Under the pieces are notes generated by a model. The model saw only the letters and a program-made list of their open reading frames with translations, did no database searches and was not told the origin of the DNA. The translations under genes and the position numbers were made by a program. A stretch of DNA of 64,000 nucleotides from positions 152,934 through 216,933 of the forward strand of contig JBBTSZ010000002.1 in NCBI GenBank assembly GCA_038064495.1. Reading direction: 5' to 3'. The DNA is from Patescibacteria group bacterium (GTDB taxonomy: Bacteria > Patescibacteriota > Minisyncoccia > Phycocordibacterales > Phycocordibacteraceae). This document shows positions 1,741-25,451 of the stretch, piece by piece; position 1 is the stretch's first letter; each line of letters begins with the position of its first letter.

Positions 1741-3513
1741 ATGACATTTACATTCTTGTTCCTCGGAATTGCCTTTATTGCTGGAATCCTCACGGTACTT
1801 GCTCCCTGTATTCTTCCACTGCTACCAGTTGTGATTGGAGGGTCGGTAACAGGAGACACCAGTTTCAAACGAGCTTTTACGGTTGTGGCGGCGCTTGGGT
1901 TTTCCGTTGTTGCGTTTACGCTTCTCCTAAAAGTAAGTACGGCCTTTATTACAGTTCCGCCACTCTTCTGGCAGTTGCTTTCAGGAGGACTTCTCATTCT
2001 CTTTGGTATTCTCACGACGTTTCCAAATCTGTGGGAGAGTCTCGGTATCACCGCTCTCTTGAACATTAAGGGAAACCGACTCATGGCAACTGGTGACAAG
2101 AAACAGGGCTTCGTTGGTGATTTGCTCGTCGGCATTGCACTTGGTCCCGTGTTTACTTCGTGTAGTCCTACGTACTTCATCGTGCTTGCAACAATTCTTC
2201 CTGCAAACCCGGTCATTGGTTTTATTTATCTTCTGGCCTACACGTTTGGGCTCTCACTCTCTCTACTTCTTATTGCTGTTGTGGGACAACGCATCGTAGA
2301 CCGACTTGATCTAGCAGCAAACCCGCATGGCTGGTTTAAGCGAGGACTTGGCATTCTTTTCATCGTGATTGGTCTTGCGGTAACGTTTGGCATAGACAAA
2401 ATACTTGCCACCTCACTTCCACAGCAAGCCTACGGAATAACGGGTATTGAACAGAATCTCCTTAAGCTAACAAATGGAAAGAATGGGGATGCAACCTCAA
2501 CGCCAACGTTCGTTCCGCTAGGCACGTCAGCTACACCGCTTACGCAAATAGAAAAATCAACTCGATACGAAAAAGCACCAGAATTAGCTTCACCGAATGC
2601 GTATCTCAATACGGGAGGTGCACCGATTACGATCGGAGAGAATCGAGGAAAGAACGTCGTGCTTATAGATTTTTGGACCTACAGTTGTATCAACTGTCAG
2701 CGAACACTTCCGTACCTCAAAGCTTGGAATGAGAAATACAAGGACCAAGGATTGGTTATTATCGGTGTTCATACTCCCGAGTTCTCATTTGAACAAGTAC
2801 AGCAAAACGTAGCTGACGCGCTCAAACGTTTTGGCATAACCTATCCCGTGGTACTCGATAACCAATACAAAACCTGGAATGCATTTGGTAATCAGTATTG
2901 GCCACGCAAATACCTTATTGATATTGATGGGTATATTGTGTACGACCATGCTGGTGAGGGTAACTACGAGGAAACCGAGAAAGCGATCCAGCGAGCACTC
3001 AAAGAGAGGGCAGAACGTCTCGGACAGGACGGAAGCGGTATTCAGGGCACCGCTTCGGTATCGGCTACCGCGCCTACTTCCGCTTCGAGTCCAGAAACGT
3101 ACTTCGGTGCTTCACGAAATGAGTTCTTAGGAAACGGTAAGCCGGCATCGCCAACCAAGCAATCGCTTACGCTCCCGAGTAGTTTTCCCAAGAACAAACT
3201 ATTTCTTGGAGGTGAATGGGATATTCAATTTGAGCACGCCATAGGATCGTCTGGAGCAGATGTGGTCTATACCTATACTGCAAAAGAGGTCTACCTCGTT
3301 GCCAGTAGTGATGCGGGGGCCGAGATAGAAGTCATGCAGGATGGGAAACCACTCGGAACTATTTCTGGAGCAGACGTGAACGCATCGGGCATCGTTCCAG
3401 TAAAGGAAAGTCGTTTATACAAACTCATTAAGAATGATGCTTCAGGAACGCACACACTCAAACTCCACATGAAGAGTGGTAGCGTACGCTTCTATACCTT
3501 CACGTTTGGTTAG
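1741..3513 (+). CDS. DipZ-like fusion protein: CcdA/DsbD-type transmembrane electron transporter + thioredoxin-like domain (CINC) + C-terminal extracytoplasmic domain
   Basis: N-terminal ~230 aa polytopic with paired Cys (CILPLLP.. / TSCSPTYF); redoxin domain FWTYSCINCQRTLPYL; architecture resembles mycobacterial DipZ. Confidence 0.75.
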   Translation: MTFTFLFLGIAFIAGILTVLAPCILPLLPVVIGGSVTGDTSFKRAFTVVAALGFSVVAFTLLLKVSTAFITVPPLFWQLLSGGLLILFGILTTFPNLWESLGITALLNIKGNRLMATGDKKQGFVGDLLVGIALGPVFTSCSPTYFIVLATILPANPVIGFIYLLAYTFGLSLSLLLIAVVGQRIVDRLDLAANPHGWFKRGLGILFIVIGLAVTFGIDKILATSLPQQAYGITGIEQNLLKLTNGKNGDATSTPTFVPLGTSATPLTQIEKSTRYEKAPELASPNAYLNTGGAPITIGENRGKNVVLIDFWTYSCINCQRTLPYLKAWNEKYKDQGLVIIGVHTPEFSFEQVQQNVADALKRFGITYPVVLDNQYKTWNAFGNQYWPRKYLIDIDGYIVYDHAGEGNYEETEKAIQRALKERAERLGQDGSGIQGTASVSATAPTSASSPETYFGASRNEFLGNGKPASPTKQSLTLPSSFPKNKLFLGGEWDIQFEHAIGSSGADVVYTYTAKEVYLVASSDAGAEIEVMQDGKPLGTISGADVNASGIVPVKESRLYKLIKNDASGTHTLKLHMKSGSVRFYTFTFG

Positions 3514-4841
3514 CTCACTTCTCCGAGGTAGGGAAGGGGGAATATCTTCTCACGCTCCTTTCCGGTAAAAAGTGCATCACTTCGTTTCTTGGACATGCTT
3601 CCCATACCGCGACCTCCTGCTGCCGCTTTACCCGCTTCTATCGCCTTCATAGAGGAGCCCAAGTAAACCGAGTGTCGGCCGTAGCGTTCGTTTAGGGTAT
3701 CAACATTTTCAAAGATGCGTGCCGTACCTTCTACCTTACCCGGGTCACTAAATAAATCGAGCTGCACCTCACGCGCCTCGTGGAGTCCGGTAAGGGTTAT
3801 TCCCGTTGCTCTGTACGTGGTGCCTTTACGAAAGACTTTGAGAAAAGAAGGTTTGAGTGCCTCAATAAGTTCGTGAGGGTTACTAGTGGGGTGGGCGAGT
3901 GTAAGCTGTGCTGCGCGGTAGCGGAAGCTTGAAGATTTTAGAAAAAACGAAAACCCCGTGGCGGAGAGTCCATAACGACGAGCCTTTACGCACGCGCCCT
4001 CCATGTTCTTGGAGAGTTGTGAATACAAAAAAGCAGGGTCGCCCGAAGCAGGTGAGAAGGAGCGAGTCTTTTGTATGGAGTGGTAATTGTCCTTAGTTTC
4101 AGTGACAAGTTCTAGTACGGAAACACCGGAAAGCTCCTGCCAGATTTCAAGAGCGGGTTTAGTTACGTGAGCACGCACCCACACCTCATTTTTCTGTACG
4201 AAATCAAAGGCTGTCTTAATACCGAGCTTATTCAAATGCTCGGTTGTGTTTGGACCAATACCCCAAATCTTTCCAATCAGGGTATTTTTGAGGAACGTAT
4301 CTTTCTCCACCAGACGAATTGGTGTGAAGCCATTTGGCTTTGCGTATTTAGAACCCACCTTAGCGAGTACCTTGGTTGGAGCGATTCCTACCGAAAAAGT
4401 TATATCCAGTTCGTTTTGTAGGTCGTTCTTAATCTTCAGAGCAATCTCCTCATAGCCCATATGGTGGAGACGTCTGAGTCCCGTGATGTCTCCAAAGCAT
4501 TCATCAATGCCGTATTCTTCTACTTGAGGAGTGTAGCGTCGCATGATTTCATACATGCGCAGTGAGTAGAGGGTATAGAGCTCGTAGTCAGACGAGAGAA
4601 TAATCGCGTCCGGACAAATCTTGTGCACGTCAGCCAGACGGATACCACGCGAGACGCCACGAGCTTTCGCCTCGTACGTTGCTGCCGACACTATCCCGCG
4701 CTCCGCTCCCGTGACAACTGGCTTTCCGCGGAGCGCCGGGTTACGAGCAACTTCGCACGCGGCGAAGAAACTGTCACCGTCGACGTGTACTATCGCTTTT
4801 GGATAATAATATGAGCGCCCCCAACCCACCTCAGCTACCAT
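3510..4841 (-). CDS. Y-family translesion DNA polymerase (DinB/UmuC type)
   Basis: VHVDGDSFFAACE...GIDECFGDITG...SVGIAPTKVLAKVGS are Y-family palm/finger motifs; lies immediately downstream of lexA on the same strand. Confidence 0.8.
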   Translation of the reverse strand: MVAEVGWGRSYYYPKAIVHVDGDSFFAACEVARNPALRGKPVVTGAERGIVSAATYEAKARGVSRGIRLADVHKICPDAIILSSDYELYTLYSLRMYEIMRRYTPQVEEYGIDECFGDITGLRRLHHMGYEEIALKIKNDLQNELDITFSVGIAPTKVLAKVGSKYAKPNGFTPIRLVEKDTFLKNTLIGKIWGIGPNTTEHLNKLGIKTAFDFVQKNEVWVRAHVTKPALEIWQELSGVSVLELVTETKDNYHSIQKTRSFSPASGDPAFLYSQLSKNMEGACVKARRYGLSATGFSFFLKSSSFRYRAAQLTLAHPTSNPHELIEALKPSFLKVFRKGTTYRATGITLTGLHEAREVQLDLFSDPGKVEGTARIFENVDTLNERYGRHSVYLGSSMKAIEAGKAAAGGRGMGSMSKKRSDALFTGKEREKIFPLPYLGEVS

Positions 4842-4992
4842 AGGCGCTTTGCTCGTTCGGCATATTTCTCGAAAGGACCGGAATGATTCTCTGCTGAGAA
4901 TCTTCCTCCTGCTCGGCTCGTCAGCCTGCGCAGAGCCCTTTCTCGTAACATCCCTTCACTCGCATGGAATGTGCCAATCATATGCGTTCCCA

Positions 4993-5559
4993 CTAGTATT
5001 TGCGGACAACGCCAGTAACCACCGCCTCAATCGTCAGATTTCCTTTTGGATACATAGGCTTGAAGGCAGCGTTCGCGGGTTCAAGGTAATAATGTTCACC
5101 TGATTTGCGGAGATACTTCATCGTGTATTCGCCTTCAACAGACGCGATAACAATTTGTCCGGGCTTATAGGTAGAGCGACGCTCAACGATAACGAGGTCT
5201 CCGGGACAGATGCCGGCATCAATCATGCTTTCCCCTTTTACTTTGAGAATGTAACTACTCTCTTTGTTTGGCGTGAGGTATTCGTCAAAGTCCATGACAT
5301 CAAGCAGCTCTTCTTCAGCAGCGGAAGGGAAGCCGGCCTCAACCAGACCAAGAAGGGGAACACCAGAAAGGGCACGCCCCGGCGCAAGTCGTCCGAGCTT
5401 ATCTTTAATGAGAATGCCGTCTTCAACGAGTTTGTTAATAAGTTTGTAGACCGAGTTTTTAGAAGCAAGACCAGTCGCTGACATGATTTCCTTATAGCCC
5501 GGCATTCGCTTATGGCGCTCGTAGAAGCCAATAATCTTTCGTTTGTAGGAGTCGTACAT
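4993..5559 (-). CDS. lexA: LexA repressor (winged-helix + S24 peptidase)
   Basis: N-terminal wHTH; C-terminal S24 domain with GESM (Ser) and K dyad, VIVERR...GQIVIA motif. Confidence 0.85.
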   Translation of the reverse strand: MYDSYKRKIIGFYERHKRMPGYKEIMSATGLASKNSVYKLINKLVEDGILIKDKLGRLAPGRALSGVPLLGLVEAGFPSAAEEELLDVMDFDEYLTPNKESSYILKVKGESMIDAGICPGDLVIVERRSTYKPGQIVIASVEGEYTMKYLRKSGEHYYLEPANAAFKPMYPKGNLTIEAVVTGVVRKY

Positions 5560-7663: not shown

Positions 7664-10600
7664 CTATAGAGCGGTTTCCTTGTGTGCGTATAGTTCACGA
7701 ATCTTCTTTCCTGGCCAGCGGTAGTACAAAACAGGAATGAGCACGAGGGTAAGAAGGAGCGAGAAGGCGAGGCCCGCCATGATGGAGAAGGCGAGTGGTG
7801 CCCAGAATGGTGAGGCGAACACAAGTGGAATCATACCAATCACCGTCACCACCGTGGTGAGCAAAATAGGACGAAGACGTGTGGACGCCGCTTCAATAAC
7901 CACTTCTTCAAGGTTCATCTCCGGATGCTCGCGGTGAATACGCGCGATAGAGTCCATGAGAATAATGGCGTGGTTGATGATGACGCCAGCAAGCGCAATC
8001 ACCCCGAGCATAGACGTAAGTGAGAGCGGCTGACCGACAAGGGTGAGGCCAACGAACACACCTACGAGAGAAAGAGGAATGATGGAAAGAAGATAGAAGG
8101 ACTGGCGGAATGAATTGAACTCAAGTACGAGAATGGAAAGCATGAGTGCTGCGCCTGCGATAAGTGCGAGGAAGAGTTCGGTAAACGATTTACCAACATC
8201 CTCAGACTCACCACCAAGCTTTACGGTCACTCCTTTACCAATGAGGTTCGACGTCAGTTTTTTCTGGAATTGGTTGGTTAACTCAATAGCATTTGCTTTA
8301 GGGCCCACGTCCGCTGTAACGGTGGCAATGCGGTGGCCTGCCTCGTGATGAATAGCAGTCTGCGAAGGTTCATACGTAACAGTAGCAATGGTTGAAAGTA
8401 CTACCGGGCCCTTACTACCCGGGATGAGAAGATCACGAACGGCATCAATAGAGGTGTGCGTCGTTTCAGAAGGATCTCGGTAGTTCGGGTTGAGCGCAAG
8501 TTTGGTACGCACCTCAATGTCGTTCTTTCCGGTCTTAATAGTTGTCGCCTTGGCACTGAAAAGCGCAGTGCGGAGTGTGTCTGCAACCGTGAGTGGAGAA
8601 ACACCGAGCTCAGCCGCCTTACTGCTATCAAGAGAAACGACAAACTCGGCACTCGCTTCTTTGGAAGAAGCAGTAATATTCACGACGCCGGGCATATCCG
8701 AAAGAATGTGCGCAGCATTGTCTGCGGTTGTAGAAAGCTCGCCGAGATCATCTCCACTCAAAGTAATGGTGATAGGTGACGCTGCTGGAGGTCCGCCTGC
8801 TGGTTCACCAACGGTGACAGCGGCTGAGGTGACGGTTGCAAATTGTGTACGAAGCTCCGTGACGAAGTCGGCACTAGACTGTTTATGACCTTTCGGCAGA
8901 TTCACCGTGATGTTACCGATATTGGTTCCTGAAGAAGGTCCACCACCGAGAGCGCTTGCAAAGGAACTACCCGCACCCACCTCCGTTACGAAGGAAGCGA
9001 CATGTTTGTTGCCGTAGAGCTGTTCTTCTATCTCACGAACGGCGAGGTCTGTTTCGGTTAGTTCAGTGCCTTGTGGCTTTTCTATTTGCACATAAATAGT
9101 GTCAGCATCTTCTCCCGGGAAGAATTCAGATTTTAGAAGGCCGGTTACGGGAAGCAAAAGAGAGAGAATAAAGAGACCAACCATCACTTGGAGGAAACGG
9201 TTCTGGTCATGTTTACTCCGAAGCATCTTGTACAAGAAGTTCTGATACCACTGCCTCGCCACACGGTTGTATTTTTCCTGACGCTCAGTGAGTGCATCAT
9301 GAGACGTTTTGACGTAGAACATGGCGAGAAGTGGTACGAAGCCAAGTGCCACAAAGATTGACGCAAGGAGTACGAAAATAACCGTAAATGGTATGGAGGC
9401 AAGGAACTTTCCGACGATACCGGAAAGGAAGAAGAGAGGAATGAACACCACGATGGTGGTGAAGGTTCCTGCAATAAGGGGCCAGGCATACTCACGAATG
9501 GCAGAGACTGCCGCTGCGTGTTTATCACCGTGTTTACGTACGTGCGTATGGAAAGCCTCCACCACCACAATGCCGGAGTCCACCAAGATACCGATGGCAA
9601 GAATGAGTGAGAATAACGAGACGTTGTTGAGGGTGTTGCCGGACGCAAGGAGTCCAATGAAGGCAACCAGGAAAGAAAGCGGAATGGAAGCCGCTGCAAC
9701 AAGAGACTCACGCCAGCCGAGCGTGACGAGAAGCACGAGCATCACCAGAATAACGGTTTCAACACCAGCACGCGTAAGCTCGGTGAGACTTTTGTTCACT
9801 TCCTCAGCTGCGTTGTAAGAAATGACAATATCGGTACCGGTGAGGAGTCCCTCTTTCTTCAAATCTTCAAGACGCTTTTCTACCGCGTGACCGGTGGCAA
9901 CAATGTTCCCACCACGACTCTTGTGAATGGTGAGGGTGAGGGAAGGCTCTGCTGGCTTCCCTTGAACGGATACGCGAGAGAAGGTCGTCGGGTCTTCAAG
10001 ACCATCCACCACCTCTGCCACGTCTCGCACATGGAGGGTTGCGCCACCGGGGCCGAGCAGTGCCACGTTACCAACTTGATCGGTAGAGGGAACGCCCGAT
10101 TCAAAACGAACGGCGTAGTTCACACCGTCTACCGTGATAGAACCCGCAGGCGAAGCGACACCTGCAGAGCGAATCGCGTTTGTGACATCACTGAGTGAAA
10201 GATTGTACTGGCGAAGTCGCTCTGCTTTCACAATCACCTGAACCTCACGTGCACGTACGCCCGAAACACCTACCTTTGAGACTCCAGAAACACGCTTCAA
10301 TTCGTCCGAGACATTCTCACCAAGCGCGGTGAGTTCTGCAGGTGCGAGATTTCCCGATATGGAAACGATAAGAATCGGTTGGTCCGCAAAGTTGGTATCA
10401 GAAACAGTCGGGTCAAGTGCCTCAGCAGGCAAGTCAGGACGTACTTTGTCCACGGCGTCCTTCAACAGTTGAATGGACTTATCAATATTGGCTGAAGAAT
10501 CAAATTCAACAGACACGATAGAAATGCCAGCTCCTGAGGTGGAAGTGACTTTTGACACGTGTTCAACGCCAAGAACCCCATTTTCAATCTTGTCGGTAAT

Positions 10601-10789
10601 GAGTCGTTCAACGTCAGCAGAACTCGCTCCGGGAAGTACGGTGGAAACAACACCGAGTGGGATTTCAATATCAGGCGTTGCTTCTTTTGGAATGGCGAGC
10701 ACGGCGTAGAAACCACTCCCGAGAAGGACAATCATCAAAAAGACCGTAAAGGTACTTTTTTTAAGAAAGAAGCTCCAGAAGTTTGTCAT
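7664..10789 (-). CDS. RND efflux transporter permease (AcrB/MMPL superfamily)
   Basis: 1041 aa with 12-TM/two-large-loop RND topology and typical RND TM4 and TM10 motifs. Confidence 0.9.
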   Translation of the reverse strand: MTNFWSFFLKKSTFTVFLMIVLLGSGFYAVLAIPKEATPDIEIPLGVVSTVLPGASSADVERLITDKIENGVLGVEHVSKVTSTSGAGISIVSVEFDSSANIDKSIQLLKDAVDKVRPDLPAEALDPTVSDTNFADQPILIVSISGNLAPAELTALGENVSDELKRVSGVSKVGVSGVRAREVQVIVKAERLRQYNLSLSDVTNAIRSAGVASPAGSITVDGVNYAVRFESGVPSTDQVGNVALLGPGGATLHVRDVAEVVDGLEDPTTFSRVSVQGKPAEPSLTLTIHKSRGGNIVATGHAVEKRLEDLKKEGLLTGTDIVISYNAAEEVNKSLTELTRAGVETVILVMLVLLVTLGWRESLVAAASIPLSFLVAFIGLLASGNTLNNVSLFSLILAIGILVDSGIVVVEAFHTHVRKHGDKHAAAVSAIREYAWPLIAGTFTTIVVFIPLFFLSGIVGKFLASIPFTVIFVLLASIFVALGFVPLLAMFYVKTSHDALTERQEKYNRVARQWYQNFLYKMLRSKHDQNRFLQVMVGLFILSLLLPVTGLLKSEFFPGEDADTIYVQIEKPQGTELTETDLAVREIEEQLYGNKHVASFVTEVGAGSSFASALGGGPSSGTNIGNITVNLPKGHKQSSADFVTELRTQFATVTSAAVTVGEPAGGPPAASPITITLSGDDLGELSTTADNAAHILSDMPGVVNITASSKEASAEFVVSLDSSKAAELGVSPLTVADTLRTALFSAKATTIKTGKNDIEVRTKLALNPNYRDPSETTHTSIDAVRDLLIPGSKGPVVLSTIATVTYEPSQTAIHHEAGHRIATVTADVGPKANAIELTNQFQKKLTSNLIGKGVTVKLGGESEDVGKSFTELFLALIAGAALMLSILVLEFNSFRQSFYLLSIIPLSLVGVFVGLTLVGQPLSLTSMLGVIALAGVIINHAIILMDSIARIHREHPEMNLEEVVIEAASTRLRPILLTTVVTVIGMIPLVFASPFWAPLAFSIMAGLAFSLLLTLVLIPVLYYRWPGKKIRELYAHKETAL

Positions 10790-17497: not shown

Positions 17498-18892
17498 ATG
17501 AATCCAACCAACAGTAGGGGAGGTGCGCGCCCAAGGTCCTCTGGACCTCGAGGCCGCCGCCCCGACACCAGTAATGCCTACGAAGCAGGCATGAAGTTCG
17601 CCCAAATGGCGCCCATGGCACCAACTAATAATTACGTCCCTCGTCGCGAGCCAGCTCGTGCACGTTTCGCACGCCCTATGCGTGGCGGAAGCTCTTCCGC
17701 TCGTGGAGGCTTTTCAGGTGGCAGTCGAGGAGGTGGAAGCTTTTCTCGTCCAGCCTCTGGCAAACGCAACATGCAGGAAATGGCCGTGGACCTTTCAAAA
17801 CTCGTTAATAAGGCAACCCCGTCAGCAGACGTAGAAGTCTTTACCCCAAAACACGCTTTTGCAGACTTTGCGATTGATGAGCGCTTGAAAGTAAACATCA
17901 CGGCAAAGGGATATTTGAACCCAACGCCTATTCAGGACGAGGCTATTCCACACGTACTCAAGGGAGAGGATATCGTCGGCCTCGCTAACACCGGAACCGG
18001 TAAGACAGCAGCCTTCCTCATCCCGCTTATTGATAAAGTGCTCAAGTTCCGTACCCTCGGAAAGAATGAGCGGGTACTTATCATGGTGCCGACGCGTGAG
18101 CTTGCTCTTCAGATTGAAGCTGAATTCTTTGGCTTCACGAAGGGTCTTCAGCTTGCGTCCGTTACCTGTGTCGGTGGAGCAAACATTGTTCCGCAGATCC
18201 GCGTGCTTCGTCGTAACCCTGCTTTCGTTGTGGGTACACCAGGCCGTCTCAAGGACCTGATGGAGCGTAAAGACCTTGATTTGAAGGACTTTGCGACCGT
18301 CGTGCTGGACGAGGCTGACCGCATGCTTGATATGGGCTTCATTAACGATATGAAGTTTATTTTGAGCCACATGCAGGCAAAGCGTCACACGCTTTTCTTT
18401 TCAGCTACGCTTGACCGCGAAATTGAAAAGTTGATTGGTGATTTCTTGTCATCTCCTGCACGCGTCTCGGTAAAAACTCGCGACACTGCCGCAACGATTG
18501 ATCAGGACGTGGTCTACGTAAAGAAGGAAACCAAGTTCGACACGCTCGTTGAAATGCTTTCGTCTCCTGATATGGACAAAGTTCTTGTCTTTGGACGAAC
18601 GAAGCATGGGGTAGAGCGACTTGCTCGAGACCTTTCGCATCGTGGCATCAAAGCAGACTCTATTCACGGGGATAAAACTCACGGCAAGCGCCAGAAAGCA
18701 CTTGGTCTCTTCAAACAGGACCATGTGCAGGTACTCGTTGCGACCGACGTGGCAGCTCGAGGCCTTGATATTTCAGGTGTCTCACACGTGATTAACTACG
18801 ACCTTCCAGCAACGTACGAGGATTACACCCATCGCATCGGCCGAACGGGACGAGCGGGGAAGACAGGTAAAGCCCTAACGTTCATCAGTTAA
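17498..18892 (+). CDS. DEAD-box ATP-dependent RNA helicase with an N-terminal Arg/Gly-rich tail
   Basis: Q-motif, AxTGTGKT, VLDEADRMLDMGF (DEAD) and HRIGRTGRAG; the first ~100 aa are RGG/low complexity. Confidence 0.85.
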   Translation: MNPTNSRGGARPRSSGPRGRRPDTSNAYEAGMKFAQMAPMAPTNNYVPRREPARARFARPMRGGSSSARGGFSGGSRGGGSFSRPASGKRNMQEMAVDLSKLVNKATPSADVEVFTPKHAFADFAIDERLKVNITAKGYLNPTPIQDEAIPHVLKGEDIVGLANTGTGKTAAFLIPLIDKVLKFRTLGKNERVLIMVPTRELALQIEAEFFGFTKGLQLASVTCVGGANIVPQIRVLRRNPAFVVGTPGRLKDLMERKDLDLKDFATVVLDEADRMLDMGFINDMKFILSHMQAKRHTLFFSATLDREIEKLIGDFLSSPARVSVKTRDTAATIDQDVVYVKKETKFDTLVEMLSSPDMDKVLVFGRTKHGVERLARDLSHRGIKADSIHGDKTHGKRQKALGLFKQDHVQVLVATDVAARGLDISGVSHVINYDLPATYEDYTHRIGRTGRAGKTGKALTFIS

Positions 18893-18913
18893 AACTGAGC
18901 CCCCGAAGCCCAG

Positions 18914-18945
18914 AAACCCCGCAGTCGTTGACTGCGGGGTTTCTG
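18914..18945 (+). terminator. intrinsic terminator AAACCCCGCAGT-cgttg-ACTGCGGGGTTT
   Basis: Perfect 12-bp stem followed by a T-tract. Confidence 0.7.
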
Positions 18946-18989
18946 CTATACTAATTTTATTGGCAAATAAGGGCACATAATCATTACGT

Positions 18990-19703
18990 ATGGACACGGA
19001 TAAGACAGCGGGCGGCACAATTATTGAGAAATACCTCACTCCGATTGCGGTAGTGGTCGGTGCACTCATTATTGCTGGTGCGTTTGCGTTTGGAAATAGT
19101 GGCACAACCGCGAACCCTCAGCAGGGTCAGCAGGCGGTGAAGGTAAACATTAAGGATGTAAAAACAGAGGGCTCACCGTTCATTGGAGATGCGAACGCTC
19201 CGGTAACGATAGCTATTTGGTTTGATTACCAATGTCCTTACTGCAAAAAGTTTGAAGAGACGGTTACCAATAAACTCATTGAGAACTACGTGAAGACCGG
19301 CAAACTCAAGATTGTCTTCAAGGATTTCCAGTTCCTCGGTGAAGATTCTATGGTAGACGCAGAATTCGCTCGCGCTATGTGGGAGGCATATCCTGACCAC
19401 TACTACGAGTGGTACATGGCTATGTTCGCTGCACAGGATGATGAAGGTGACAAAGGCTTTGGTGATCTTGAGTCAGTGAAGACACTCACCGCAAAGATTC
19501 CGGGTGTAGACGTCGCGAAGGTGGTCAAACTCATGACGGACAAGAAATCAGAGTATGACACCGCGATTACTGCCGACCGTACCGAAGGTCAGGCTCTTGG
19601 TATCAAGGGTACTCCAAACGTTATTATCGGCACCAGCCTCCTTTCAGGAGCCCAGCCCTACGAGTCTGTCGCACCACTCATTGATGCACAGCTGAAGAAG
19701 TAG
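18990..19703 (+). CDS. DsbA-family thiol:disulfide oxidoreductase (membrane-anchored, CPYC)
   Basis: N-terminal TM, thioredoxin fold with WFDYQCPYCKKF. Confidence 0.8.
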   Translation: MDTDKTAGGTIIEKYLTPIAVVVGALIIAGAFAFGNSGTTANPQQGQQAVKVNIKDVKTEGSPFIGDANAPVTIAIWFDYQCPYCKKFEETVTNKLIENYVKTGKLKIVFKDFQFLGEDSMVDAEFARAMWEAYPDHYYEWYMAMFAAQDDEGDKGFGDLESVKTLTAKIPGVDVAKVVKLMTDKKSEYDTAITADRTEGQALGIKGTPNVIIGTSLLSGAQPYESVAPLIDAQLKK

Positions 19704-19743
19704 TCTCTCCTCACTCGTTTGAAAGAGAAAACAGCCCCTTCGG

Positions 19744-19775
19744 GCTGTTTTCTCTAATCTCACAAAGGGCTTTTC
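19744..19775 (+). terminator. intrinsic terminator CAGCCC-cttc-GGGCTG + TTTTCTCT
   Basis: Hairpin plus T-tract directly after the DsbA-family stop. Confidence 0.6.
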
Positions 19776-19806
19776 AGTCCTGCTAAGCCTGGTACACTAG
19801 CTTCTA

Positions 19807-20310
19807 ATGGCAAATGGCTATAACGAATGGAAGGTGGATATGACGAGCGGGAAGGATATCCCGCACTATTACGGGGATTATGTCCGCACGCTTTTTATTG
19901 TTATGGCAGTGGTCTCCTTTATCGCGACTCCGCTCTGGGGAGATTTACTCCCGTTTGGGGTGATTGCACAGACGGTGGCACCGCTTCTTCTCGTCTTGCT
20001 TGCAGGACTCACGAGTGCAAAAAACCACTACATCATGCTTATCAATGCGACCATTTCCGGCGTATCTGTCCTCTTACTTGAGTCGTATGCCATTATCATG
20101 CACCATACACAGTCCTCCGAACTTTTCTTTGCTCGAGAAGCCGGCGTACTTCTTATGCTCGGTTCTCTCTACTTCAGTATCAAAACATTTCGCGCCATGA
20201 TGAGCGGCAAGATGGGTCACTTTGATTCACTCTTTGAATTTGATGGCGCGACACCTCCACCAGTAGCAGACGATTCGATACACGCCGATATCAGTTCCTA
20301 TAATGAATAA
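19807..20310 (+). CDS. hypothetical membrane protein
   Basis: 167 aa with 4 predicted TM helices; no known motif. Confidence 0.45.
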   Translation: MANGYNEWKVDMTSGKDIPHYYGDYVRTLFIVMAVVSFIATPLWGDLLPFGVIAQTVAPLLLVLLAGLTSAKNHYIMLINATISGVSVLLLESYAIIMHHTQSSELFFAREAGVLLMLGSLYFSIKTFRAMMSGKMGHFDSLFEFDGATPPPVADDSIHADISSYNE

Positions 20311-20319
20311 GGTAGACTG

Positions 20320-20766
20320 ATGAGTATGAACCTCATCACCAAAATTAAATCGGTAGACTGGAATCACGTTACGAAATATTCTCAAATACTCGCCGTTGTA
20401 CTCTTTGTTGGTGTCTTCGGACTTGGTTTCTGGCTCGGAAAAACCTACGAGTATCGGGCTTTCACTAATTCTCTTAAGGAAGCTCATAGTAAGGCTGCTC
20501 CCGACAGTGGAAAATCAATTGCAGATGTTACCTACAGCTGCAATGCAGACAAATTCCTCCACGCACTCTATTTTGGTGACCACGTCAGTATCGCTGCATC
20601 TGACGGACGTAATCTCTATCTTCCGCTGACACCTTCCGCATCAGGAGCTCACTATACCAACCAGGACGAGTCGGTGGTTTTCTGGAACGAGGGGAATACA
20701 GCCTTTATTACCGAGGGTAAGAAAACCACTTTCGAAAATTGCATAGCCAAGCCCATCCCAGAATAA
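20320..20766 (+). CDS. MliC-family (membrane-bound lysozyme inhibitor of C-type lysozyme)-like protein, TM-anchored
   Basis: YSCNADK..., SASGAHYT (SxSGAxY core), VFWNEGNTAFI and a closing Cys (FENC) fit the MliC/PliC fold pattern. Confidence 0.55.
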   Translation: MSMNLITKIKSVDWNHVTKYSQILAVVLFVGVFGLGFWLGKTYEYRAFTNSLKEAHSKAAPDSGKSIADVTYSCNADKFLHALYFGDHVSIAASDGRNLYLPLTPSASGAHYTNQDESVVFWNEGNTAFITEGKKTTFENCIAKPIPE

Positions 20767-20828
20767 AGGACGGTGTGGATTCACACAGCTGTAAGATGAC
20801 GTCCTGTAGGGCGTCATATACTGTACCT

Positions 20829-21374
20829 ATGAAACATTCATTGCTTTCGGTGCTGTTTGCATTCGTACTCTTTACTCCCGTCACGCAAGCAGCGAGCGAT
20901 GTCTGTACCACCGACTATAGTCCAGTCTGTGGCGCACACCCAGTACAGTGCATTAAGGCTCCGTGCTATCCGGTGTATCAAACGTATTCAAATGCTTGCA
21001 TGATGGAGCGAGAATCAGCAAGTTTCATCCACTCCGGCACCTGCACATCTGAGGAGAATGGACCAGTATTGCCGGTTGAAGCATACACACCACCCAAGAA
21101 TTGCACCGCATGGTTTGATGGTTGTAATTCATGTAGTCGAGGTCCGAAAGGCACTGCCATGTGTACCTTGCGTGCGTGCCAAATAGGCTCGGAGAAACCC
21201 GGGTACTGTACCGCCTATGAAGAGCCTGCTCCCGTCGTAACCCCACCAAAGGGAGGTACGGGAGTGGTACATCCGACACCGCCTGTTACTGAGGCAACTA
21301 CAACAACGGAATCAACCCCACCACCTGGATTCCTCGAGAGGTTATGGAATTGGTTTTTGCACTGGTTTCGGTAA
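20829..21374 (+). CDS. secreted cysteine-rich protein with a Kazal-like protease-inhibitor domain and Pro/Thr-rich tail
   Basis: Signal peptide MKHSLLSVLFAFVLFTPVTQA; YSPVCG...TYSNAC matches the Kazal PVCG/TY-N-C core; a second Cys-rich module; ends with hydrophobic WNWFLHWF. Confidence 0.5.
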   Translation: MKHSLLSVLFAFVLFTPVTQAASDVCTTDYSPVCGAHPVQCIKAPCYPVYQTYSNACMMERESASFIHSGTCTSEENGPVLPVEAYTPPKNCTAWFDGCNSCSRGPKGTAMCTLRACQIGSEKPGYCTAYEEPAPVVTPPKGGTGVVHPTPPVTEATTTTESTPPPGFLERLWNWFLHWFR

Positions 21375-21479
21375 AATAGGACTATCCCCAGAGGCTCAAA
21401 AAGTAGCTTTCACTGTTTTAGAAAGATTTATACTTAAGGGGTAAGATCATAACGATCATTAAATAAATTACAAAACGCT

Positions 21480-21872
21480 ATGGCTAAAACGCTTGCGATT
21501 GTGTTCGGTATCGTGTTTGTGCTCGTCGGTGTGCTCGGCTTCATTCCAAACGGAATAGTAGGCGCAATGGGAATCTTTGAGACCAATACGTTGCATGACC
21601 TCGTGCACTTGCTCGTTGGTATCATTCTCCTTGCTGTTGCTTTCACGGCACCAATGAAGTCCGCTCTATGGCTTAAAATCCTCGGCGCGGTCTACCTCGT
21701 ACTTGCGGTACTTGGTTTCCTCATGATTCCTTCAGGAGGAATGCTTCTTGGTCTCGTGCAGATGAATGCTACTGATCACCTCCTTCACGCTGTGCTTGGT
21801 ATCGTGCTTATTGCTGCTGGCGCCATGGGTGGCGGTAGCAAACCAGCAATGATGCCTGGTTCTGCGATGTAA
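21480..21872 (+). CDS. DUF4383-family small membrane protein
   Basis: MAKTLAIVFGIVFVLVGVLGFIP... is the typical DUF4383 N-terminus with 4 TM. Confidence 0.65.
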   Translation: MAKTLAIVFGIVFVLVGVLGFIPNGIVGAMGIFETNTLHDLVHLLVGIILLAVAFTAPMKSALWLKILGAVYLVLAVLGFLMIPSGGMLLGLVQMNATDHLLHAVLGIVLIAAGAMGGGSKPAMMPGSAM

Positions 21873-21914
21873 GACAGACGCTACGCGTTGTCTTGCTGAC
21901 TGCGCTCGCTCAGA

Positions 21915-21942
21915 AAAAAGACCTCCACAAGAGGTCTTTTTT
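21915..21942. terminator. intrinsic terminator AAAAGACCTC-cacaa-GAGGTCTTTTTT
   Basis: Perfect stem flanked by A- and T-tracts. Confidence 0.75.
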
Positions 21943-21980
21943 CATTCACTCGCTTGTCAGTAAGCCTCGCTGTTTGTTTG

Positions 21981-22013
21981 TATATAAAAACCACCATGCC
22001 GAGACGATGGTGG
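21981..22013 (-). terminator. intrinsic terminator CCACCATCGTCTCGGCATGGTGG + TTTTTATATA (minus strand)
   Basis: Hairpin then a T-run when read on the minus strand, just downstream of the 22029 stop. Confidence 0.6.
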
Positions 22014-22028
22014 TGTGGTTGAAGGGAA

Positions 22029-22250
22029 TTAGGGAAGAATAGGACGTGCTTGAGGAAGTGGAAAGGGTGGTTGGCTTGGAGTACCGAGAGCTGCGGACTT
22101 TGCGGCATATCCAGAGGCAACGTTGGCTGACACTTCAGCTCCATGCAAGAACGAGACCATGGTGCTAATTCCTTGGGTGAGAACAGCGGGGGCGAGAAAT
22201 CGTAGAACAATAATCAAGATACCAAGACCAATAGCATTCCGTATACCCAT
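22029..22250 (-). CDS. small hypothetical membrane protein
   Basis: 73 aa with an N-terminal TM; supported mainly by its own downstream terminator; no clear SD. Confidence 0.35.
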   Translation of the reverse strand: MGIRNAIGLGILIIVLRFLAPAVLTQGISTMVSFLHGAEVSANVASGYAAKSAALGTPSQPPFPLPQARPILP

Positions 22251-22367
22251 ACAGATGTGGTGATGAGTAAATTGCAGTTCGTAACTGCAACGAGACAGGC
22301 AGGGTCTCTTGACTATATCTATGAACGGCTCCCTCTACCCTTAGAAACCAACGCTACCGATGAAAGG

Positions 22368-22916
22368 TTACGTAGTTGATGTGGTTGCAAGTAGGTCGGC
22401 AAATTCCTTCTGCACTTTCTGAAGTTTAGGAGCAATAATCACCTGGCAGTAACCCTGATTCTTGTTGTTGGCGTAGTAGTTCTTGTGATAATCCTCAGCA
22501 GGATAAAAGGTCGCGTTTTCTTCCACCGTTGTCACGATAGGGTCGCCTCCTTCGGCGGAGTGTTCCAATTCTGCAATAAAGGCTTTTGCCTCCTCAGCTT
22601 GTAGAGGGGTGGTAGGGAAGACCGCGGAACGGTACTGCGTACCGACGTCGTTTCCTTGTTGGTTCAACTGTGTGGCGTCGTGACTACCGAAAAAGACCGT
22701 CATGAGAGAACGGTAAGAAACGAGGGAGGGATCGTATTCAATACGGATGACTTCTGCGTGTCCGGTGGTTCCGGTAGAGACGTCTTGGTACGAAGGGTTT
22801 GGATTTTTTCCTCCGGCGTAGCCTGGCTCAACCTTTGAAACACCCTTCAGCATTTGGAATACTGCTTCGGTGCACCAGAAACAACCCCCACCGAATATTG
22901 CAACTTCAGTGTTCAT
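22368..22916 (-). CDS. msrA: peptide-methionine (S)-S-oxide reductase MsrA
   Basis: AIFGGGCFWCTEAVF active site. Confidence 0.9.
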   Translation of the reverse strand: MNTEVAIFGGGCFWCTEAVFQMLKGVSKVEPGYAGGKNPNPSYQDVSTGTTGHAEVIRIEYDPSLVSYRSLMTVFFGSHDATQLNQQGNDVGTQYRSAVFPTTPLQAEEAKAFIAELEHSAEGGDPIVTTVEENATFYPAEDYHKNYYANNKNQGYCQVIIAPKLQKVQKEFADLLATTSTT

Positions 22917-23332
22917 TTTGCTCCTTCCTCGAAGTCGAGGCAGACGGAATTAATGCAGTATCTCTTTCCGCCTGCTTCAGCAGGTCCGTCTTCAAACACG
23001 TGTCCGAGGTGTCCGTTGCACTGCTTACAGTAGACTTCGGTACGGTGCATACCGTGACTGTCATCTGAACGTGTCCCGACATTTTCCGCGACCGCAGGGT
23101 CAGTGAAAGAAGGCCAGCCCGTACCTGAGTCAAACTTCTGGTCACTCGTAAAAAGGACGTTTCCGCAGGCCTTGCACTTGTACATGCCGGCCTCGTGATT
23201 ATCTACATATTTCCCAGTAAACGGAGCTTCGGTCTCTCCTTTCCTGAGCACCGCATATTCCTCAGGGGAAAGTTTGTTGCGCCACTCTTCATCTGTTTTT
23301 TGCATGGGTTCCATATACTCCCATTCTATCAT
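22913..23332 (-). CDS. msrB: peptide-methionine (R)-S-oxide reductase MsrB (Zn type)
   Basis: CKACGNVLF...CKQCNGHLGHVFEDGP; overlaps msrA by 4 nt. Confidence 0.9.
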   Translation of the reverse strand: MIEWEYMEPMQKTDEEWRNKLSPEEYAVLRKGETEAPFTGKYVDNHEAGMYKCKACGNVLFTSDQKFDSGTGWPSFTDPAVAENVGTRSDDSHGMHRTEVYCKQCNGHLGHVFEDGPAEAGGKRYCINSVCLDFEEGAK

Positions 23333-23357
23333 TTTTGCTTATGCTAGTATTGAGGTC

Positions 23358-23798
23358 ATGACGCGCAAGAACCTCCTCTACACGATAGGTTTTTTTGCTT
23401 TTATAGGCCTTCTGGATGCCTGGTACTTGGCTGATATGGCACTTACCGGTGGAAGCCTTACCTGCACACTAGAAGGTCTTGATGGATGTAACGTGGTTGC
23501 ACAAAGTAGCTATTCACGGTTATTCGGTCAGCCGCTCGCGCTCTACGGCGTCTTTTTCTATGTGTTCTTCCTCATCACGGCCTCACTCGCGTTTTACAAA
23601 CCGACCCGTACCGTTGATCACCTCATCATTCTCCTTGGTATCGGTGGTTTTGCGTCCTCGCTCTACTTCCTCTATGTGCAGTTTGTCCTCATTCAAGCTC
23701 TCTGTGTGTATTGTCTCGGTTCAGCCATTGCATCCACGTGTTTACTTGCTCTGGCTATTCTCCTAAAACGTCGCGGACACAGCTTGACTATCCCTTAG
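23358..23798 (+). CDS. vitamin K epoxide reductase (VKOR)-family protein (DsbB analogue)
   Basis: 4-TM VKOR core with Cys pairs (CTLEGLDGC and the CVYC active-site motif). Confidence 0.75.
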   Translation: MTRKNLLYTIGFFAFIGLLDAWYLADMALTGGSLTCTLEGLDGCNVVAQSSYSRLFGQPLALYGVFFYVFFLITASLAFYKPTRTVDHLIILLGIGGFASSLYFLYVQFVLIQALCVYCLGSAIASTCLLALAILLKRRGHSLTIP

Positions 23799-23824
23799 CT
23801 CCACTCGTGGTATTATCGGGCCAT

Positions 23825-24979
23825 ATGGCAAGACGACTCGCCTTGGCCCTCATTCTCACGGTTCTCCCGTGGTCGGCTCATGCGGCAACCCTTGAATCTG
23901 GCCGGACCATTGTATTGTCTGAAGCTTCCTCTACAAACGCGTACCTTGCTGGTACGGATGTCACGGTCGTCGCACCACTTGCCGGTGACTTGCTAGCTGC
24001 AGGTGCAACTATTCACGCAAATGCTCCTATCGCAGGAGACCTTATGCTTGCAGGCGGAACGATACTCGTTGAAAAGCCCGTAGCGGGCGATGTGCGTGTG
24101 TTTGGTGGTGAAGTAACCCTTTCCGCCCCAATTGGTGGAGATTTGCTTGCAGCGGGTAATACCGTTATCGCGTCCACGAGTGCACGTGATACGCGTATTG
24201 CAGGCGCTACCGTAAAGCTCCTCGCAGGCGCCAGCGGCCCCGTACACGTGGTTGGTTCTGACATCACCCTTACGGGAGACTTTAGTGGGGACGTCACGAT
24301 TGAAGCCTCAAACAGCATCACGATTACGGACGGTACGCACATACACGGCGGTCTAAAGTACAACGCACCGGAACAGATTGTGATTCCAGCGACCGCTCTC
24401 GTTGACGGAGGAATCACCTATATTGGCAGTTCTGCATATCTTCCAACCAACAGCGAAGCACACACCTTTGCACTTGCCGGTGCCACCATTCTCTTCCTGG
24501 TAGGCATGATTGCGCTCAGCATTCTTGCCGGACTCTTTGCCGGACTCTTCCCGGAGTTTACTCACCAGATTGCTGAGAAAACGTTGTCAGCCCGACCGCA
24601 ACGGTTCGTCCTCCTCACCCTTCTTGGATTCGGCGTTCTCGTTGCAACACCGGTTCTTATTTTGATACTCGGCCTTTCGTTCGTGGGTATTGGGGTCGCG
24701 ATCGCCCTTACCGGCGTCTATGCACTCTTCATCATGTCTGCCTACGTCTATGCAGGAATTCTTGCAGGAGCTGCACTCTCACGGCGCTTCCTCAAGCGTA
24801 ACGTTATCACCTGGAGGGAAGCGGTGATTGGTACCTTCATCTTGTATTTCATCGGACTCATACCGTTCCTCGGCGGACTCATTAAATTTATTCTCATGAT
24901 GTCAGCTGGTGGAGCGATTGTCTCTATCGTCTACCACTTCACATTCAAGCGGGAGGAACAGCTCGTAGCTGAGGTCTAA
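23825..24979 (+). CDS. membrane protein: secreted bactofilin-like beta-helical repeat domain + C-terminal polytopic domain
   Basis: Signal peptide; ~10 tandem AGDLLAAGATI/VAGDVRVFGGEV-type repeats; then 5-6 TM helices. Confidence 0.55.
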   Translation: MARRLALALILTVLPWSAHAATLESGRTIVLSEASSTNAYLAGTDVTVVAPLAGDLLAAGATIHANAPIAGDLMLAGGTILVEKPVAGDVRVFGGEVTLSAPIGGDLLAAGNTVIASTSARDTRIAGATVKLLAGASGPVHVVGSDITLTGDFSGDVTIEASNSITITDGTHIHGGLKYNAPEQIVIPATALVDGGITYIGSSAYLPTNSEAHTFALAGATILFLVGMIALSILAGLFAGLFPEFTHQIAEKTLSARPQRFVLLTLLGFGVLVATPVLILILGLSFVGIGVAIALTGVYALFIMSAYVYAGILAGAALSRRFLKRNVITWREAVIGTFILYFIGLIPFLGGLIKFILMMSAGGAIVSIVYHFTFKREEQLVAEV

Positions 24980-24980
24980 T

Positions 24981-25451
24981 ATGGCGTTTCCAGCCGTACA
25001 TACTAAAGCACCGGACTTTACGCTCCCTGACCAAGATGGAAAGATGCATACCTTGAGCGCACTCAAAGGCTCATGGGTGCTCATCTATTTTTATCCGAAA
25101 GACGATACGCCAGGATGCACGAAGCAGGCGTGCATGCTTCGCGATGCTGAGCCGGATTTTTCAAAACTAAACGCCGTCGTACTCGGTGTGTCAGCGGACT
25201 CGATCGCAAAACACAAAAAGTTTGTGGACAAATATGGCCTCCCATTTCCGCTTCTTGCAGACGAAGATAAGAAGGTGGTGAAAGCCTACGATGTGTGGCA
25301 GTTGAAAAAGATGATGGGTAGAGAATACGAAGGCATTGTCCGGACCTCATTTCTGATTAATCCAAAGGGAGAGATTGAAAAGATTTACGAAAAAGTGAAG
25401 CCGGAAATGCATGCAGAAATGGTACTTGCCGACCTAAAGGAGTACGCCTAA
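24981..25451 (+). CDS. bcp: thiol peroxidase Bcp (peroxiredoxin Q family)
   Basis: FYPKDDTPGCTKQAC peroxidatic Cys motif. Confidence 0.85.
   Translation: MAFPAVHTKAPDFTLPDQDGKMHTLSALKGSWVLIYFYPKDDTPGCTKQACMLRDAEPDFSKLNAVVLGVSADSIAKHKKFVDKYGLPFPLLADEDKKVVKAYDVWQLKKMMGREYEGIVRTSFLINPKGEIEKIYEKVKPEMHAEMVLADLKEYA

Follow-up and report, generated by a model that had tools for sequence, protein, structure and literature searches.

How do the exposed surface proteins of bacteria of the candidate phyla radiation (CPR) survive? These organisms have minimal genomes and are often attached to other cells, and this side of their biology is little understood. The question is raised by two adjacent genes in a stretch of 64,000 nucleotides (the window, meaning the whole stretch that was analysed), which is part of a 397 kb contig of a Patescibacteria group bacterium from the Hainich groundwater metagenome (well H41, 0.1 µm fraction), and whose nearest relatives are metagenome-assembled genomes (MAGs) labelled Parcubacteria, Paceibacterota or Minisyncoccia. 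The upstream gene (gene A) encodes a protein of the MliC/PliC family, the downstream one (gene B) an exported, cysteine-rich protein, and a preliminary description of the sequence had taken the two for a paired anti-lysozyme/anti-protease secreted module. Here we show how gene B joins a Kazal-like to a pacifastin-like head, and we consider it fairly likely, judging from sequence and structure models, that it acts as a cell-surface, two-headed, canonical-loop inhibitor of serine proteases. An exported inhibitor fusing two animal-type folds would be a concrete and testable factor in the surface defence of CPR bacteria.

The heads, stalk and tail of gene B and their proposed function

Gene B has 69 homologues, and its family was aligned (alignment A1); Pfam scans of its relatives cover 45 aligned homologues, and all column statistics (entropy, invariance and cysteine covariation) 60 full-length ones. 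Structures are AlphaFold2 (AF2) models, with confidence given as the predicted local distance difference test (pLDDT), and were searched with Foldseek against the PDB. The open reading frame (ORF) first described is present, and is laid out as follows:

20829-21374, + strand: gene B, exported two-headed Kazal-like/pacifastin-like protein of 181 amino acids with 12 Cys (69 homologues, alignment A1, AF2 pLDDT 84)
20829-20891, + strand: signal peptide, residues 1-21, MKHSLLSVLFAFVLFTPVTQA, followed by ASD; read from the sequence, with the predicted cut between TPVTQA and ASD
20898-21047, + strand: head 1, non-classical Kazal domain, residues 24-73, with Cys 26, 34, 41, 46, 57 and 72 (Pfam, profiles, Foldseek)
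20910-20912, + strand: P1 codon of the head 1 reactive loop, C26-T27-T28(P1)-D29-Y30-S31-P32-V33-C34-G35
Residues 74-85: linker between the heads
21084-21221, + strand: head 2, pacifastin-like, residues 86-131, with Cys 92, 99, 102, 112, 117 and 127 and a WFDGCNSC core (PF05375, profile, Foldseek)
21168-21170, + strand: P1 codon of the head 2 reactive site, C112-T113-L114(P1)-R115(P1')-A116-C117
21222-21323, + strand: Pro/Thr-rich low-complexity stalk, residues 132-165 (pLDDT 56-57)
21324-21371, + strand: C-terminal amphipathic Trp/Phe helix, residues 166-181, PGFLERLWNWFLHWFR (AF2 helix 168-180, pLDDT ~93)

The ATG at 20829 was taken as the start because the N-termini of the homologues agree; a longer, TTG-initiated version from 20739 was discarded, as all homologues start with the signal peptide at this ATG. 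The signal peptide itself, with a Lys in the n-region, a hydrophobic core and T-Q-A, has the same layout in all homologues.

With gene B as a single sequence, a search of the PDB returned marginal matches only, so that a profile of the family was needed, and NCBIfam gave no match for the gene. The family profile retrieved the Galleria inhibitor GmSPI-2 (E 8.9e-6), the Anemonia elastase inhibitor (7e-5) and infestin (1e-3), and GmSPI-2 (4hgu) is also the best Foldseek match of the gene B model (TM-score 0.79, probability 1.0). Furthermore, Kazal_1 (PF00050, MEROPS I1) is matched by 23 of the 45 scanned homologues (E<0.01, best E 1.8e-7). The Kazal call that had been made for the first module is thereby supported at the level of the family, not by the score of the single protein. 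In the model, head 1 has the Kazal hairpin and helix (strands 33-37, 49-53 and 65-69, helix 56-61, pLDDT ~96), and its sequence carries both the canonical loop (C26-T-T-D-Y-S-P-V-C-G35) and the TY-x-N-x-C start of the helix (T52-Y-S-N-A-C57), with C26, Y30, P32, C34, T52 and C57 invariant. The classical six-Cys pattern of Kazal domains (1-5/2-4/3-6) is not found, since Cys1 and Cys5 are absent; C26, C34, C57 and C72 correspond to Kazal Cys2, Cys3, Cys4 and Cys6, a non-classical two-disulfide pattern as in GmSPI-2. The remaining pair, C41 and C46, is present as a pair in 50/60 homologues and absent as a pair in the other 10/60, and this joint presence or absence argues for a local disulfide within the insertion that distinguishes head 1 from all its solved relatives. 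P1 of this head varies (1.61 bits; M, A, Q, E, D, T) between invariant flanking columns.

The second six-Cys module, which had been noticed and left unnamed, is pacifastin-like, judging from PF05375 (Pacifastin_I, MEROPS I19) matches in its family and from a domain profile. The definition of a pacifastin (PMC13388995) asks for six cysteines bonded 1-4, 2-6 and 3-5, for a hinge Gly and for two motifs, C2-N-x-C3 as the core and Cys5-x-P1-P1'-x-Cys6 as the reactive site; core, Gly and reactive site are found in head 2 as C99-N100-S-C102, G108 (56/60 homologues) and C112-T-L-R-A-C117. Matches to PF05375 were obtained for 36/45 homologues (E<0.01, best E 1.1e-7), and a profile of head 2 only (A3) retrieved seven sequences from the PDB at E<1, every one of them a pacifastin-family inhibitor (best E 0.0067). 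Foldseek matches for this head are SGTI (2f91_B, TM-score 0.65) and 2vu8_I (TM-score 0.70), with weak E-values, as is expected with targets of 33 residues. The model shows the three-stranded sheet of the family (strands 92-96, 101-104 and 110-112, plus 126-130, pLDDT ~94), and the core reads FDGCNSC..G....CTLRAC where that of LCMI-II reads FDRCNTC..G....CTLRAC. Here too the frame is rigid and the contact residues are not: C112, T113 and C117 are invariant, and P1 (1.82 bits; L, M, E, K, Q) and P1' (1.68 bits; R, M, K) vary. A variable P1 within a rigid frame is a textbook signature of standard-mechanism inhibitors.

Behind the heads, the Pro/Thr-rich linker of the preliminary description is the stalk of residues 132-165, which is modelled with low confidence and differs in length and sequence between homologues, and its aromatic hydrophobic tail is the W/F-rich helix of residues 166-181 (mean hydrophobicity 0.18, hydrophobic moment 0.64). 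Searched over 7,915 ORFs (the window plus the surveyed loci), a hidden Markov model of this tail matched family members only; for a general sorting signal, the lack of other carriers among these ORFs is a weak negative, with 64 kb of the genome covered. A second copy of gene B was not found in the window.

What, then, would gene B do for its cell? The protein would be exported by Sec and cut by signal peptidase after Ala21, and its 12 cysteines would be oxidised outside the membrane, plausibly with the help of two genes nearby:

18990-19703, + strand: DsbA-like thiol-disulfide oxidoreductase (Pfam Thioredoxin_4/DSBA), syntenic in L007, L008, L014 and L091
23358-23798, + strand: VKOR-family protein (Pfam PF07884)

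The DsbA-like protein is a candidate catalyst for the oxidative folding of gene B, and the VKOR would be the expected reoxidant of DsbA. Two independent canonical loops would then be displayed on the Pro/Thr stalk, with the tail holding the protein at the membrane or wall; as we read it, the outer face is where stalk and Trp/Phe helix probably position the heads. Head 1 would block subtilisin-like proteases, having Thr at P1 as does GmSPI-2, which strongly inhibits subtilisin and proteinase K (PMC4169406). Head 2, with Leu at P1 and Arg at P1' as in the locust chymotrypsin inhibitors, would block chymotrypsin-like proteases. The effect would be to shield exposed envelope proteins from the subtilisin- and chymotrypsin-like proteases of neighbouring organisms. 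The reading as a protease inhibitor is strengthened by the second module being an inhibitor domain as well, and the rationale of defence in an episymbiotic life, which had been offered for the gene pair, is a plausible one.

Several points weigh against this reading. Judged by the curated Pfam cut-offs (Kazal_1, 21 bits; Pacifastin_I PF05375, 27.9 bits; MliC PF09864, 22 bits), gene B alone stays below the first with 18.6 bits, and head 2 below the second with 21.3 bits. Moreover, head 2 is without pacifastin Cys4 (CNSCS-R vs CNTCR-C) and thus departs from the six-Cys scaffold; its Cys127, located after the reactive loop, is new and invariant, and a disulfide between C92 (Cys1) and C127 probably substitutes the missing Cys4 bond. 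The tail is too short for a membrane span. Kazal-like and other small cysteine-rich domains can have non-inhibitory binding roles. A candidate target protease was not found in the ~45 kb of annotated context, where Peptidase_M48 and Peptidase_S24 occur and no exported S1 or S8 enzyme does. Domain identities, loop conservation and synteny were observed directly; the inhibition, its targets, the disulfide map and the tethering are what we infer.

Gene A and its pairing with gene B

The other half of the paired module depends on gene A, whose features, together with the spacer that separates it from gene B, are:

20320-20766, + strand: gene A, MliC/PliC-family membrane-anchored protein of 148 amino acids (PF09864, homologues, AF2, Foldseek)
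20386-20439, + strand: N-terminal transmembrane anchor, residues ~23-40, ILAVVLFVGVFGLGFWLG, a hydrophobic stretch inside AF2 helix 19-58 (predicted topology)
20521-20751, + strand: MliC beta-barrel, residues 68-144 (AF2, eight strands; Foldseek TM-score)
20635-20655, + strand: SxSGAxY motif, SASGAHY, residues 106-112 (alignment; motif definition PMC6033465)
20689-20691, + strand: codon GAG for Glu124 at the Lys site of YxxxTKG (alignment)
20767-20828, + strand: spacer between the genes, 62 nt, with stem-loops at ~20773-20786 and 20796-20817 (RNA fold)

The gene is present as first described, and its assignment to MliC is borne out by PF09864 (41.9 bits, E 1e-10), a family (COG3895) which all 36 of its database homologues carry as well. 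The model (pLDDT 85) consists of a long N-terminal helix (19-58) and eight strands between residues 68 and 144, and its top nine Foldseek matches in the PDB are all of the PliC/MliC type with a probability of 1.0, among them Salmonella PliC (3oe3, TM-score 0.76), E. coli YdhA (2f09, TM-score 0.72), Brucella PliC, the P. aeruginosa MliC-lysozyme complex and Brucella PhiA. Against the NCBIfam cut-offs for the enterobacterial MliC equivalog gene A stays far below (21.5 vs 127), and it is not to be called an equivalog. A lipobox Cys is absent from gene A, and the segment WNxVT...SQIxAIVLFVGVF of its N-terminus is kept in CPR homologues; going by sequence and model, gene A is held in the membrane by its N-terminal helix, in a predicted topology. 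The word secreted does not suit this partner, which is membrane-anchored. To our knowledge, CPR bacteria have no outer membrane.

The hallmarks of an active inhibitor are only partly kept. The MliC/PliC family is defined by the motifs SxSGAxY and YxxxTKG, and in gonococcal SliC a double alanine mutant of the Ser and the Lys lost lysozyme inhibition (PMC6033465). In gene A, the two bracketing cysteines that had been pointed out are C74 and C141, which are invariant across the 27-29 aligned sequences, and the SxSGAxY core is SASGAHY, of which SASGA-Y is invariant and H111 substitutes the nearly invariant Arg of SASGARY. At the second motif, gene A reads VVFWNEG where its relatives read FWNKG, the Lys being present in at least 90% of homologues and also in E. 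coli MliC. Since an independent variant with 99% identity (P0070) shares both changes, Glu124 and H111, sequencing error is excluded. Gene A is thus, as far as its sequence tells, a protein with the fold and the family membership of MliC that is short of one functional hallmark, the YxxxTKG Lys, and its activity against c-type lysozyme in this genome is doubtful because the Lys implicated in inhibition is replaced by Glu. It probably once guarded peptidoglycan against muramidases. As such, gene A serves as a caution that family membership is no guarantee of function.

Taken as the paired module of the preliminary description, MliC and inhibitor would form one co-selected, co-functional cassette for defence, neutralising together the lysozyme and the proteases that a host or predator brings to bear. 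Both genes lie on the same strand with gaps of 31-62 nt, both products act outside the membrane, and among the 91 loci surveyed (numbered with L) the adjacency is kept in 4/4 loci of one subclade (the window, L008/L026, L014 and L091) at protein identities of only 45-55%. The order of genes in this subclade is DEAD helicase, DsbA, membrane protein, (PAP2), MliC, inhibitor, (Zincin_1), DUF4383 and MsrA, and in a neighbour-joining tree the inhibitor copies from MliC-adjacent loci form one clade. Because of the short gaps, gene A and gene B are probably co-transcribed in this one Paceibacteria subclade; a scan of 18800-22400 for promoters and terminators gave counts no higher than those of shuffles and is neutral on an operon.

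Outside this subclade the pairing does not hold. In at least 15 other loci, MliC is missing from the vicinity and the inhibitor gene lies between rplM-rpsI and grpE-dnaK-dnaJ (the loci with this rpsI-grpE slot are L001, L003, L005, L006, L009-L013, L017, L019, L021-L025 and L027), whereas L007 has the same neighbourhood as the subclade and keeps MliC without the inhibitor. Furthermore, two of the four paired loci have a degenerate MliC partner: in the window it has exchanged the key Lys for Glu, and in the sister locus L014 (CAYUQB010000001.1, 4718-4933) it is a 71-residue N-terminal transmembrane stub with the barrel deleted, directly upstream of the inhibitor, which is intact in both. On its sequence, this stub looks like gene decay. 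Moreover, DEAD helicase, DsbA, membrane protein, DUF4383 and MsrA are conserved as a block, and with the neighbourhood conserved in this way the adjacency may be merely inherited. We therefore regard a co-selected cassette as improbable: of the paired module, the adjacency stands within one subclade and not as a general pairing, and the anti-protease half is strengthened, with both heads being inhibitor-type domains, while the anti-lysozyme half is doubtful, with Glu in the place of Lys. The adjacency of MliC and inhibitor is a lineage-specific arrangement and not an obligate two-gene system.

The rpsI-grpE slot is the usual home of the inhibitor in those Paceibacteria that have the gene, an unusual place for a secreted accessory protein. 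This position hints at constitutive expression of the inhibitor.

As for the 62-nt spacer, it folds at -22.9 kcal/mol (z -2.7, with 1/200 shuffles as good). The sequence of its stem-loops is not kept in relatives, and the hairpins, being thermodynamically unusual yet unconserved, were dropped as a regulatory element.

Could the two proteins instead regulate extracytoplasmic enzymes of their own cell? Gene B would then restrain an endogenous serine protease that is secreted or on the surface, and its MliC-like neighbour would do so with endogenous glycosidases of peptidoglycan or lytic transglycosylases. A location among ribosomal-protein and chaperone genes suggests constitutive housekeeping expression, and the loss of the Lys that contacts lysozyme could reflect another target. 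There is also precedent in E. coli, where MliC and Ivy inhibit lytic transglycosylases in vitro (PMC10139938), although this inhibition is reported as weak. On the other hand, the loci with inspected annotation have no gene for a serine protease linked to gene B, and variation at P1 is easier to reconcile with a range of foreign targets than with one conserved target of the cell itself. We give self-regulation as little credence as the cassette, and continue to favour gene B as a surface inhibitor of foreign proteases.

The wider family and its origin

A profile of the whole gene B family was searched against 1.84 billion representatives (50%-identity clusters of genome and metagenome proteins, a library without taxonomy), which gave 4,190 representatives at E<=1e-3, 136 of them reaching E<=1e-30; some of the 4,190 may be non-bacterial. 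The statement in the preliminary description that Kazal domains are rare in bacteria fails for this lineage, with 4,190 matches to the family profile. The WFDGCNxC domain, often together with a Kazal-like domain, is found in MAGs labelled as many CPR lineages, Campylobacterota, some Proteobacteria, Bdellovibrionales and DPANN archaea, where some of these MAGs are short contigs in automatically labelled bins. Within the family search, matched stretches are arrayed up to 23 per protein, and in large CPR proteins the domains follow each other in the order PG_binding_1, PKD, Kazal, pacifastin, PKD, Kazal. These multi-headed relatives anchored by PG_binding_1 support a surface location for the inhibitor modules. 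The large proteins are ~520-1300 amino acids in length, one of them with Laminin_G_3 (L028, 4248-5846; L043, 2208-4130 and 4203-5879; L033, 1890-5810; L038, 4020-6050).

The same relatives bear on a further alternative, in which the cysteine-rich modules sit on a surface stalk and serve for binding or adhesion, such as attachment to a host, rather than for inhibition, with the loops a legacy of the scaffold. The occurrence of the modules in multidomain surface proteins with PKD, Laminin_G_3 and PG_binding_1, and in the arrays with up to 23 matches per protein, would suit adhesion, and the Kazal-like domains of eukaryotic matrix proteins are often non-inhibitory. However, both canonical loops, C-T-P1-x-Y-x-P-V-C-G and C-T-P1-P1'-A-C, are kept exactly, with variation focused on P1 and P1', and the nearest solved relatives are all active inhibitors, which leaves adhesion a slim chance beside inhibition.

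Animals are the best-known source of both domain families, and a sea-anemone inhibitor has exactly the consensus loop, but we give hardly any credence to eukaryotic contamination or a very recent transfer from an animal, as gene B sits between bacterial genes in the 397 kb CPR contig, its GC content and that at third codon positions (GC3) match the window, orthologues occupy conserved bacterial positions in more than 20 MAG loci, and the genome and metagenome library holds 4,190 representative relatives. The check for horizontal gene transfer from eukaryotes that had been suggested likewise gave no sign of a recent event for either gene, with GC and GC3 of both matching the window and bacterial flanks. 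Composition and synteny effectively rule out recent transfer or contamination.

Proteins with both Kazal and pacifastin-like domains also occur on contigs labelled Nanoarchaeota, Woesearchaeota, Methanosarcinales or Methanofastidiosum (L046, L048, L049, L050, L058, L067 and L084). The protein of L048 reaches 37.5 bits for Kazal_1, above the cut-offs of both Kazal_1 and Kazal_2, and 27.8 vs 27.9 bits for Pacifastin_I. Transporters and hydrolases make up the flanks in the DPANN-labelled loci L048 and L050, which are not diagnostic of archaeal origin. A survey of pacifastins from 2026 reported none in Archaea (PMC13388995).

How far might such modules reach? One could picture Kazal and pacifastin domains as an old, modular prokaryotic toolkit for shielding against proteases, held by ultra-small episymbionts and their neighbours (CPR, Campylobacterota, possibly DPANN), near-housekeeping in many Paceibacteria, with rewired pacifastin disulfides and a new helix tether. 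We deem this rather unlikely. If it were true, an inhibitor of prokaryotes would be the ancestor of the animal pacifastins, long held to have arisen in arthropods, or would have a common ancestor with them, and protease resistance would be a core need of the episymbiotic surface.

Around the two genes, the window holds a dense extracytoplasmic cluster for thiol redox and oxidative repair at 18990-25451, made up of DsbA, MsrA, MsrB, VKOR, DUF8173 and Redoxin/AhpC-TSA, much of which is syntenic in relatives, and further upstream, at 1741-3513, lies a 590-amino-acid fusion of AhpC-TSA and thioredoxin. The cluster may be a sign that this CPR lineage has adapted to life in oxic groundwater. At 3510-5505 (- strand), a Peptidase_S24 (LexA/UmuD-like) gene adjoins that of a Y-family polymerase (IMS), an arrangement that resembles a pair for SOS response or translesion in a CPR genome that is reduced, and 7664-10789 (- strand) encodes a 1041-amino-acid ACR_tran transporter of the resistance-nodulation-division (RND) type, here in a CPR bacterium.

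Comparison with known inhibitors

For gene A the known systems are the MliC/PliC inhibitors YdhA (2F09), P. aeruginosa MliC (3F6Z), Salmonella PliC (3OE3) and N. gonorrhoeae SliC, with which it shares the Pfam family, the 8-stranded barrel, the bracketing Cys pair and the SxSGAxY motif. These inhibitors are lipoproteins (MliC) or soluble in the periplasm (PliC), whereas gene A has a transmembrane anchor instead; they have Lys in YxxxTKG and Arg in SASGARY, where gene A has Glu and His. Furthermore, the host of gene A is a CPR bacterium, unlike those of the named inhibitors.

Head 1 has its closest counterpart in GmSPI-2 from Galleria, a non-classical Kazal inhibitor with four Cys, two disulfides, seven residues between the loop Cys and Thr at P1 (PMC4169406). 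It is the best match by both profile and fold, and both proteins are without the first and fifth Kazal Cys. They have in common C-T-T-(E/D)-aromatic-x-P-V-C-G with P1 Thr and the seven-residue Cys spacing, then TYSN-x-C and the helix. GmSPI-2 is, however, without the 12-residue insertion of head 1 (VQCIKAPCYPV), which bears the extra Cys pair, and it is a free insect peptide of 36 residues with measured activity, where head 1 is fused to a second head, a stalk and a tail. The Anemonia sulcata elastase inhibitor (1Y1B/1Y1C), also a non-classical Kazal protein, has CTMQYDPVCG and TYGNAC, close to the gene B family consensus of CTMQYxPVCG and TYGNSC. In contrast, its disulfides are arranged differently and it consists of one domain without the insertion, and P1 of head 1 in the window is Thr, not Met.

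The locust pacifastin peptides (LCMI-II/PMP-C, SGPI-1/-2 and SGTI; 1PMC, 1GL1, 7SLT, 2F91 and 4DJZ) are the sole PDB family matched by the head 2 profile, with a TM-score of 0.65-0.70 for the fold, and share with head 2 the C-N-x-C core, the Gly and C-T-Leu-(Lys/Arg)-Ala-Cys. They have Cys4 (CNTCRC), while head 2 has none (CNSCS) and carries a new invariant Cys (GYC-TAY). Unlike these peptides, head 2 has a conserved PP-x-x-C-x-A-W-F-D-G motif at its N-terminus, and is bacterial and fused to a Kazal domain.

Pacifastin-like domains in CPR bacteria are not new, as a report in Sci Rep (May 2026) listed 24 bacterial accessions from Myxobacteria and CPR MAGs, the latter mostly Microgenomates, WS6 and WWE3 (PMC13388995). 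Most of its bacterial matches came from a structure-based search, and canonical bonding of six Cys was required (PMC13388995). The flanks reported there include DnaK/DnaJ/GrpE, in agreement with the rpsI-grpE context of the gene B family. By the description in that paper its domains are canonical, in contrast to the gene B family, which is without Cys4, partly detectable by sequence, fused to a Kazal domain and provided with a C-terminal helix. Our literature search found no description of the Kazal-pacifastin-helix family, of a scaffold without Cys4, or of Kazal domains in CPR/Patescibacteria. Gene A and gene B are variants of known inhibitor families and not unprecedented; to the claim that pacifastins are not specific to arthropods, the gene B family adds bacterial members that are detectable by sequence and have an altered disulfide scheme.

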